Shown here: positions 41,401 to 46,158 of the stretch, one piece after another
Numbering within the stretch: the stretch's first letter is position 1
How the letters are laid out: each line of letters starts with the position of its first letter
From: a virus
Taxonomy: Duplodnaviria; Heunggongvirae; Uroviricota; Caudoviricetes
Length of the DNA: 46,158 nucleotides
Direction: 5' to 3' (one strand)
IMG/VR virus record: IMGVR_UViG_2859799533_000010
Position numbers: made by a program

Positions 41401-44400
41401 TCTTGCAGATGAAGGCACCCGCTGCTTTATCGATGCCGATAATATGCGAGCCGTCAGTGTGCTTAACCTGGGTACTATTGATGAACCAGGTCACGCAGAT
41501 AACACCGCCACACTCAAACTGAAAAAGACAGCACCGTTCTCTGCTCTGTTGTCTATTAACGGCGAGCGTAACTCCCAGAAGTCACTAGCAGAATGGATTG
41601 AAGACTGGGCAGACTATCTTGTGGGCTTTGATGCTAATGGTGACGCTATTCAGGCAACAAAAGCGGCTGCGGCTGTCCGTAAAATCACGATTGAAGCAAA
41701 CCAGACCGCTGATTTTGAAGATAATGACTTCAGCGGCAAACGCTCCCTGATGGAGTCTGTCGAAGCGAAGACCAAAGACATTATGCCAGTGGCATTTGAA
41801 TTTAAATGCGTTCCGTTTGAAGGTCTGAAAGAACGTCCGTTTAAATTACGCCTCAGTATTATCACTGGCGATCGTCCTGTACTGGTTCTGCGCATTATTC
41901 AGCTGGAGGCGGTGCAGGAAGAAATGGCTAACGAATTTCGTGATCTGCTTGTTGAGAAATTCAAGGACAGCAAAGTAGAAACCTTTATTGGTACTTTCAC
42001 CGCCTGATTTCATTACTGCAAATGCCCCTGCGGGGGCATTTATGGAAACGTAATTTACTCAATAATCGCCGGATGGTGAGGGATTCTTTTTACCAGAATT
42101 CAGCGCGGTGCAGCGCATATACGTGGAGAACAAAATGTCATTTATTAAAACTTTTTCCGGGAAGCATTTTTATTATGACAGGATAAATAAAGACGACATC
42201 GATATTAACGATATCGCGGTTTCCCTTTCAAATATCTGTCGCTTTGCCGGTCATCTTTCGCACTTCTACAGCGTCGCCCAACATGCGGTTCTTTGCAGCC
42301 AGCTGGTGCCGCAGGAATTTGCTTTTGAAGCGTTAATGCATGATGCAACAGAAGCGTATTGCCAGGACATTCCCGCACCACTGAAACGCCTTCTTCCTGA
42401 CTATAAACAAATGGAAGAAAAAATAGACGCCGTAATCCGTGAGAAATACGGGTTACCCCCAGTTATGAGTACGCCCGTGAAATATGCCGATCTCATCATG
42501 CTGGCAACCGAACGCCGCGATCTCGGGCTTGATGATGGCTCTTTCTGGCCTGTACTGGAAGGTATCCCGGCAACAGAGATGTTCAACGTGATTCCACTGG
42601 CACCGGGCCATGCCTACGGGATGTTTATGGAACGCTTTAACGAGTTATCGGAGTTACGCAAATGCGCATGAATGTTTTCGAAATGGAAGGGTTTCTTCGT
42701 GGGAGATGTGTACCGCGAGATCTGAAAGTAAATGAAACAGATGCTGAATACCTGGTGCGTAAATTCGATGCGCTTGAAGCTAAATGTGCAGCACAGGAAA
42801 ACAAAGTAATACCAGTGTCAACTGAACTGCCACCAGCAAATGAAAGTGTTTTGTTATTCGATGCTAACGGAGAAGGCTGGCTAATTGGCTGGCGTTCTCT
42901 CTGGTACACCTGGGGACAAAAAGAAACCGGAGAATGGCAGTGGACATTTCAGGTCGGGGACCTTGAAAACGTCAATATCACTCACTGGGCAGTAATGCCA
43001 AAAGCACCGGAGGCTGGAGCATAATGACCACTTTCACCGATAAGGAACTGATTAAAGAAATCAAAGAACGAATCGGCAGCTTAGACGTGCGAGACAATGT
43101 TGAGCGCCGTGCTTATGAAATTGCTCTGGCATCACTGGAAGCAGAGCCGGTGGCGTGGCTTCATTCAGACAATGGCTTAGGTATTCCGGCAATAACCAGG
43201 AGCAAAAACATTGCTGACAGTTGGTTATCAAAGGGCTGGTATGTTCAGCCGCTATATATGGCTCAGCCAGTGTCGGTGGTGCCGGATGCTCTTCCGTCTT
43301 TAAATAATGGCATAGTCGGCTTTGATGAAGGCTGGAACGCCTGCCGCGCCGTCATGCTTCATGGTGCCGAACCTGTAAGCCAGACTTACAAGTTGAACAA
43401 GCTGTCGGGCAACCCTCCTGTAACTCCGGATGGTTGGATAAGCTGTAGTGAGCGAATGCCAGAGGACGGTCAGCACGTAATTATTTTATGTGATGGCGCA
43501 TTCGTTCTTTATGCGCAATATCGAGACGGTGAGTTTTTTGATGTTGTCCGCAATGGTGAGGAGTTCTTCGAAACGCAGAGCCGCAATGTAACCCACTGGA
43601 TACCGCTACCGGAGCCGCCGCAGGAGGTAAATTAATGAACAACTTAATGACAACAAAACAAGTCGCCGAATTCTGTGGCGTTTCAATATCGACGGTGCTT
43701 CGCTGGAACAGCGTAAACCGGAGAACTGGCAAGAAATACAGACCAGACTTTCCAGATCCTGATATTAAATCCTGCCCAAATAAATGGGCATCACAAAAGA
43801 TTTACAGGTTTGCAGGAGTCATTGAGTAATATGCCTTAGATCAGATGTAAGCTGACACACCACTATGGCACAGAGTCAAACCTAATCTAACTACCTGCTC
43901 TGTGCCAAAAGAAGATACTACTAACATAAGTATAAAATAATCAACGGGACACAGCTCATCTGTACTACTCCACAAGCGGGATAAGTTTTTTACCTGTGTC
44001 TTCAAAGAATGAAAACGAAGACCAGCGGTAAGTATATAAAAAAGCCACTTTGCCTGCATGTTCTTCGATAGCTTTTTTTAAATATGACTTGCGTTTACTG
44101 ACTTCTGGAAATTTATCCGAAAAGATAACTATTGCTCTTGATGATAGTCCACCACCATTCCGCATAAAGAGAGTAAACTCACTCAATCTAAGCATATTGA
44201 AATTTGCACAATTCGCTACATCATTATCAAACTTAGCAACTATACTTTTTATTTTGTCATACAGACTGACCATATCCCTAAAAATATTTTCATCTGCCAA
44301 CTGAATATTTCTTTCATTCAACTCTGTTATATATTTATTATCATCCACTATTCCAATAGGATATCGAGCATTTAAAACTATATCTCGAGACGCAACTTTC

Positions 44401-46158
44401 AATAACTTCAGTTCGTCAACGGTTAATGGCAAACCTAAATCAACAGCCATACAATCAAGTTTATGCCCATAATTACAAAACTCATTTTCAATAGCTTTTT
44501 TTCTCGCACCGAGATTCATTAGAAGAATCGCTGACTTTAACAACATTTCAAAAGCATACCCCAACATAAGTCTGCTAGTTTGATCAGTTGCCGATGCGAT
44601 ATCGATGTATTCATGAACAATAGGAGATTTCTTACTTGCTGCCCGAAGCAATTTTTTGTTTCGCTCACCTTCACTTCTCAACAGCTTCGCAGATAAATAC
44701 AGTTTTTTAGACTCTGTTAACCAAGCCTTTCGATCAAATATACCTTTCCCATTTTTCTGCGTGATTATCTCGCTCTGCATCAATAACTCCTATGTTATTA
44801 GAACCAAACCTGCCACTAATCAATTGCAAATCTCGTCGCTGTTATTTTGACCAGACATTACATTGTCTCCATTTGTAAAATACCACTTAACTAACTTGAA
44901 TGAGAAATTGTAAGTATTCCGACAAAACAGACTATCAGTTGGGGTCTGAGCTAGCACAAGTAATGATCGATTCAACCCTCTCCCACCACGCCTGGTAGGC
45001 TTTACGCTGTTCTTCTAGATAATCGCTCTTGTCATAAACCTGCCAAACCCCTGGCAGTTTATGGCCGAGCATTATTTCTGCAATATGAGGAGCAGTAAGA
45101 TCAGAAAAGTTTGTTCGTGCTGTTCGCCTCAAATCATGAAGAGACCAATGAGGGAATTGATACCCCAAACGCCGCCATGCGTACTGCATTAAATTGTAAG
45201 GCAGCGACTGCAATGATGTTCGACCAACGGGTTCCCTGCTTCCTTCCTTAGTAAAAAGCATATCGGAACCATTGTTCATAGAGATAGCGTTCTTTATAAG
45301 CTCCTCCACCGGTTCAATAATGGGCCTCTTTAGCGGTTCGCCTGTTATCTCCCCAGTCTTATGTCGTTCTGGTGGTACAGTCCATACCTTATTAATGAAA
45401 TCAAAATCGTCCACCCTGGCAGTAATTAGCTCTGAACTACGGCAGCCAAAATGCAGCAATAGCTTAATGAAGGCCCGGTATTTAGGAACCATTCGAGAAC
45501 CATCGATCGCAGCATAAAGGATTTTAATTTCATCATGTGTCAGAAACCGTTTCTTCTGACCTTTACGGATATCCATATCTTTACCCGTGATATCCGACAG
45601 CGGGCGAGTTTCAATGAGCTTTCTCTTATACGCCCAGACATGGGCCTGCTTTGCGTTAATTAGCAATCGGTCTGCTATTGCTGGAGTCTTAGTGCTAAGA
45701 GGCTCCAGGACTTCTAACCAATCATGCAATGTAGCTGCATCGTGAGGGATATTCCCGATTTTAGAGAACAGGTGCAGCTCAAACGAGCGGAGTATCTGTT
45801 CAGAACCTTTTTTATTTTTTACACAATATGCTTCATACCAGGCACGGATCACAGACTCTACCGTCATGGCTTCAGTAGCTTTTCGTTTTTCAGCCTGCTT
45901 GACAAATCGTGGATTACGGTTTGACTCAAGTTCACCACGGAGACGAATAACTTCTTCTCTGGCCTCTTTTAATCCAGTTGCCGGGTAAGTTCCGATATCA
46001 AGACGCTCACCTTTCCCTGCCCATTGATAACGATATTGGAACACTACGCGACCTTTCGGTGATACTCTGACAGACAGACCATCACGATCGGATTTAACCA
46101 AAACCTTATCACGTTCCTTTCCAACGACTGAACGCAACCACGCATCAGACAGCGCCAT

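Follow-up and report, generated by a model that had tools for sequence, protein, structure and literature searches.

The window analyzed here, a stretch of 46,158 nucleotides from IMG/VR virus record IMGVR_UViG_2859799533_000010, belongs to a lambdoid (mEp460-like) Escherichia coli prophage and carries a protein-coding cargo gene (43965..44780, minus strand; stop codon 43965-43967) between its integrase and excisionase genes. Upstream on the same strand stands a 407-aa tyrosine integrase (44935..46158) with Arm-DNA-bind_3, Phage_int_M and Phage_integrase Pfam domains, beyond which, in the RefSeq context, the prophage ends beside host yjjG. On the other side, a 64-aa excisionase-like HTH protein is encoded on the plus strand (43635..43829; PHROG 1553 "excisionase," 6e-35). 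The orientation described in the first-pass annotation—i.e., the cargo gene downstream of and co-oriented with int, with xis and the early-left genes converging on it—was correct. Between the converging genes, in DNA common to sibling prophages, lies a 10-bp perfect inverted repeat (43866..43907, no strand assigned), which was rejected as a canonical terminator for want of a flanking T-run; a promoter/terminator scan of the locus returned nothing above shuffle expectation.

The gene had initially been given as 272 aa in length, which is indeed what the longest ORF yields from a TTG codon (43965..44783, minus strand). However, the ATG at 44780, which has a Shine-Dalgarno-like AGGAG (44787..44791, minus strand, read from the sequence) 6 nt upstream, gives 271 aa; almost every close homologue has this length, as does the RefSeq entry (WP_001190315.1, labeled "hypothetical protein"). 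GC content is 0.33–0.37 over 44000-44900, compared to 0.45–0.51 in the flanks, and 35.3% over the whole cassette (43951-44931), compared to 50.5% for the window, in keeping with the earlier description of an AT-rich segment with a single ORF (~35% versus ~50% GC). Full-length homologues at 46–80% identity and a dN/dS of 0.07–0.18 confirm that the cargo gene is real and conserved.

The gene sits in a slot whose cargo varies within this prophage lineage (43917..44927, no strand assigned). When the window was compared by blastn with sibling loci (L023-L026), homology ended at ~43916 and restarted at ~44927, and these siblings, which have the same int and xis flanks, carried three other AT-rich orphan genes in the slot. 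Four cargo types of 31–35% GC are thus found between flanks that are 83–97% identical among related prophages, and none of the four matches a known defense family. The position between int and xis is a hotspot for cargo ("moron" slot), as had been suspected of this integrase-proximal position, and both the deviant GC content and the different orphan genes in the siblings speak for the separate acquisition that had been proposed for the segment. Since the content of the slot is swappable among near-identical prophages, it is dispensable for the phage life cycle. The idea that the same gene might be met next to unrelated integrases was also borne out, as relatives adjoin a tyrosine integrase of 25% identity, a 546-aa integrase without detectable similarity, and serine recombinases. 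A comparable arrangement is described for P2/P4 hotspots (PMC9122126), where AT-rich accessory genes, often for defense systems, replace one another in a fixed slot flanked by conserved phage genes, although the present case concerns another phage lineage, lambdoid and with a yjjG-adjacent integrase.

Sequence libraries gave little indication of function. No usable match was obtained for the single window protein with Pfam, PADLOC or PHROGs, nor in PDB sequence searches with two profiles, and when 20 or 71 family members were searched with Pfam, PADLOC and NCBIfam, no significant curated HEPN or defense model was returned. PADLOC-DB 2.0 produced noise-level matches only (REase_II, 0.0012 over 40 residues; PDC-S19, 0.0067, the latter in 5/71 members). 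In addition, WP_001190315 is not mentioned in the literature searched and is absent from the DefensePredictor supplements, and a domain-centric defense screen mentions neither Mrr nor HEPN. The initial statement that the protein has no recognisable motif therefore stands for sequence libraries, but not for predicted structure, where the suggested comparison with HEPN folds did return HEPN.

The protein is predicted to be soluble and to comprise two domains, with residues 17-186 (44223..44732, minus strand) forming a helical HEPN-fold domain of the classical HEPN-T type (PF05168/AF0298-like) and residues 187-271 (43968..44222, minus strand) forming a small alpha/beta domain of three strands, a long helix and two strands. 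An all-alpha up-and-down helical bundle with HEPN topology is present in the predicted structure, for which the best Foldseek match was 2hsb (probability 0.99). The C-terminal domain carries a near-invariant R207-x-G209-G210 and has no solved structural counterpart. Across 71 diverse members of the family, W20, E78, K82, H106, R139, Y140 and P141 are invariant or nearly so, and E78, K82, H106, R139 and Y140 make up a conserved polar cluster. Each of the seven has a single invariant counterpart (W, E, K, H, R-Y-P) among 68 PF05168 proteins, whose alignment was built for comparison by hhalign. Specifically, W20, E78-K82, G105-H106 and R139-Y140-P141 align to W18, E50-K54, G66-H67 and R101-Y102-P103 of the PF05168 alignment; the signature of W (helix 1), E-x3-K (helix 2), G-H and R-Y-P is thus present and in order. 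The hhalign score itself was marginal (P ~0.04–0.05, probability ~1%), with a correct residue register, and PF05168 matched 2/71 members below threshold (E at least 0.0028) and the window protein not at all.

The canonical Rx4-6H motif is absent, and no conserved His follows R139 in the 71-member alignment. The sole invariant His is H106 (codon 44463-44465), 33 residues upstream of R139 (codon 44364-44366), which is itself kept in 70/71 members and replaced by K in the other. Judging from this conservation, H106 likely substitutes for the missing histidine of the motif, although catalysis is uncertain because the canonical Rx4-6H is absent. AF0298-type HEPN-T proteins likewise keep the motif R, have lost the motif H and carry a second conserved H further N-terminal (PMC3710099), and the window protein resembles them in precisely this respect, its motif His missing and a conserved His upstream. 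Their genes cluster with restriction–modification (R-M) genes (Anantharaman et al. 2013, PMC3710099).

We compared the window protein with the PF05168 HEPN-T structures TT1696 (1ufb), AF0298 (2hsb), TTHA0636 (1wwp), ST0689 (1wol) and TM0613 (1o3u). The most-conserved residues are the same, in the same order and at similar spacing, such that the His precedes helix 3 and R-Y-P follows helix 4. In contrast, the window protein is about twice the size: 11 residues are inserted ahead of the His, there are additional helices, and a C-terminal domain of 85 aa follows. HEPN-T is typically a small domain (~120–140 aa) that stands alone and often has MNT as a partner or fused to it, whereas the 271-aa window protein has no MNT partner and no nucleotidyltransferase family recurs among the neighbors of its relatives: an MNT gene was found neither adjacent to the cargo gene, whose flanks are int and xis, nor in any of 42 related loci. 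This sets it apart from the HEPN/MNT (HepT/MntA) type II toxin–antitoxin systems (e.g., 7ae2, 5yep, 8xdj), in which, as described in PMC7641770, the toxins use Rx4H and HepT-type toxins are neutralized by AMPylation from the adjacent MNT.

The wider family, which is unnamed, comprises ~185 clusters at 50% identity, mostly from Proteobacteria and of the same two-domain length; in Enterobacterales there are 31 full-length clusters. In Alpha-, Beta- and Gammaproteobacteria, Nitrospira and Gemmatimonadota, 33 loci were compared and no neighbor was conserved among them, so that the family is normally solo, and other enterobacterial members are also solo. Defense genes are frequent around distant relatives, among them KAP NTPase (PDC-S20), PD-T4-4/AriA-like ATPases, type II R-M, a type III-A retron, Dsr2, SoFic and PD-T7-5, and housekeeping genes occur there too. 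The family lies mostly outside recognizable viruses; the window protein had no tblastn match in 50,697 deposited phage genomes, and an IMG/VR scan with the enterobacterial-clade alignment returned this prophage only.

The closest relatives tell more about the history of the locus. The closest three (75–80% identity) all lie 36–41 bp behind the same 302-aa Mrr_cat gene, at three different genomic sites, and this Mrr-like nuclease, judged from the sequences, retains a D...DxK-type core (Pfam match, 1.3e-10). The Klebsiella cassette belongs to a small integrative element, where int and alpA flank it and an Abi_alpha/PDC-S47 gene lies next to it. In the window, the 302-aa gene is absent from the position immediately upstream, and in its place is a 12-codon mini-ORF (MSGQNNSDEICN followed by a stop codon; 44820..44858, minus strand), which was recognized by blastn and when the DNA was aligned to the cassettes of Klebsiella, Serratia and E. 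coli. It joins the start codon and ~5 N-terminal codons of the nuclease gene to its final 6 codons plus stop. The mini-ORF has its own GGAG at 44867-44870. Directly after the integrase stop codon, 44877..44931 (minus strand) represents the upstream region of the ancestral cassette and presumably bears its promoter; it is 87% identical to positions 4968-5022 of locus L002, immediately upstream of the Mrr_cat start codon there, and no strong sigma-70 consensus was found in it. No Mrr_cat homologue occurs elsewhere in the window. The intact pair of Mrr_cat and HEPN-like genes is known from Klebsiella and Serratia and from a single E. coli assembly and was found in 0/5426 complete E. coli genomes, 19 of which carry the deleted form.

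According to the alignments, the mini-ORF is what remains, in frame, of a deleted gene for the 302-aa Mrr_cat nuclease. The opposite scenario, in which an Mrr gene was inserted into a 12-codon ORF, was rejected as far less parsimonious than deletion. The view that a single gene had been acquired was abandoned: DNA alignment and blastn show that the cargo gene arrived second in a two-gene cassette and is its survivor, the nuclease gene having been removed in-frame. The solo state is secondary in the window lineage, because the Mrr-like gene was deleted.

We also examined how the remaining gene has evolved. Its ORF is intact in all 19 of the 5426 complete E. coli genomes that carry it, while a nonsense codon, W20*, interrupts one copy in IMG/VR. 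Position 102 is Cys in all E. coli copies compared and K or R in 90% of the family, and the window copy has Q at the conserved K/R67 position. Between two copies that both carry the deletion there were 6 synonymous versus 4 nonsynonymous differences, a bias with p ~0.02 against neutrality by our own binomial estimate. The window branch has accumulated 31–34 unique amino-acid changes versus 5–9 in its sister (Tajima test, p ≤ 0.0005), while branch omega, derived from pairwise distances, was ~0.18–0.20 for the window and 0.15–0.18 for the sister. We do not claim relaxed selection on the window lineage; no clear relaxation is seen, because the branch is lengthened proportionally at synonymous sites as well. 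The remaining gene stayed under purifying selection after the deletion.

Since the closest relatives are all found behind a nuclease gene, the protein might instead lack catalytic activity and serve the Mrr-like nuclease, the actual effector, as a sensor, regulator or antitoxin. In the window it would be an orphan, which might persist because it protects against cassette copies that come in, or by inertia. The retained nuclease core fits such a partnership, as do the tolerated loss of the nuclease, the lack of Rx4-6H and the R102C change in the cargo protein, and a distant family member that is likewise followed by a nuclease-type gene, here for an MBL-fold LmuA-like protein. However, the 33 diverse loci have no neighbor in common and other enterobacterial members do without a partner; moreover, E78, K82, H106 and R139-Y-P are strictly kept at ~25% identity, as expected of an active or binding site rather than of a mere interface, and the changes between the two deleted copies are biased towards synonymous ones. 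We therefore regard this explanation as possible, albeit unlikely.

It is less likely still that the protein has no part in defense and acts as a nucleotide- or RNA-binding regulator for the prophage (lysogeny, excision or host physiology), or as an anti-defense or inter-bacterial conflict factor. Classical HEPN domains do also serve as non-catalytic nucleotide- or substrate-binding modules (PMC3710099), and some relatives adjoin DUF1493/DUF8209, Rap1a, PAAR or Imm11 genes, neighbors typical of inter-bacterial toxin/immunity regions. Set against this are the interchangeable content of the slot among otherwise near-identical prophages and the distribution of the family, which is mostly found outside recognizable viruses: the window protein had no match in deposited phage genomes, and the enterobacterial-clade alignment found this prophage only in IMG/VR. 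Finally, a functionless remnant in slow decay after the cassette was broken seems very improbable, for although the partner gene is deleted, two conserved basic positions are substituted, the window branch has an excess of unique amino-acid changes, one copy carries W20* and few E. coli genomes have the gene at all, the ORF is intact wherever it occurs in complete genomes, branch omega is close to that of the sister with a proportionally longer synonymous branch, and the post-deletion changes depart from neutrality.

The reading that we prefer, tentatively, is that the cargo gene encodes a solo, latent HEPN ribonuclease that would be activated by a trigger and would serve in phage defense. From fold and context we infer a defense or exclusion function, and the gene is plausibly a candidate anti-phage defense gene. 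The cassette, consisting of the 302-aa Mrr-like PD-(D/E)xK nuclease gene and then the cargo gene, entered the int-xis slot, after which an in-frame deletion removed the nuclease gene; of the cassette's front part, the DNA upstream, the ribosome-binding site and both the start and the stop codon persist with the stump. The cargo protein would act alone, dimerizing such that H106 and R139 form a composite site, and its C-terminal domain would keep it inactive until a phage-derived cue is perceived. Once activated, it would cleave RNA (tRNA or mRNA) and so abort infection by competing phages.

Single-HEPN abortive infection on prophages has precedent because of HepS (PMC13043305) and, as described in PMC11087260, Tha. 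HepS, from the Salmonella prophage Gifsy-1, is a single HEPN protein carried as lambdoid-prophage cargo without an antitoxin or partner gene (PMC13043305), and by analogy the window protein would be non-toxic until triggered. The two are likened by description. HepS has a canonical RX4-6H (R100-H105) that the window protein lacks, and the HepS homologue set was limited to proteins <250 aa without extra domains, both limits that the window protein exceeds (PMC13043305). HepS is activated by a tail-tip protein and cleaves tRNA (PMC13043305); both properties are conjecture for the window protein. Tha, from Staphylococcus aureus prophages, is described as a prophage-encoded HEPN defense protein that a structural protein of the incoming phage activates (PMC11087260). 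It is a functional analogue for the proposed mechanism, from a host of another phylum, and is again likened by description.

A broader proposal, about which we are doubtful, is that the protein would represent a new family of stand-alone HEPN effectors with an "alternative" HEPN-T site (upstream His plus motif Arg) in place of the canonical Rx4-6H and a new 85-aa sensor domain, working alone or with a swappable nuclease (Mrr-like PD-(D/E)xK or MBL-fold). In that case, the prophage copy in E. coli would amount to a natural experiment, with the nuclease lost and the HEPN protein maintained by selection. Should the gene prove to be without phenotype, the finding would shrink to an ordinary decaying moron. 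The three further orphan genes of the slot are equally good candidates for screening. The history of the cassette, with its intact and deleted forms, offers a ready-made comparison for the assembly and disassembly of two-gene defense modules. If the protein is an active defense RNase, it would add a new sensor domain to the phage-sensing modules and would give experimental access to a non-canonical HEPN-T catalytic arrangement that has been predicted since 2013 and is poorly tested.

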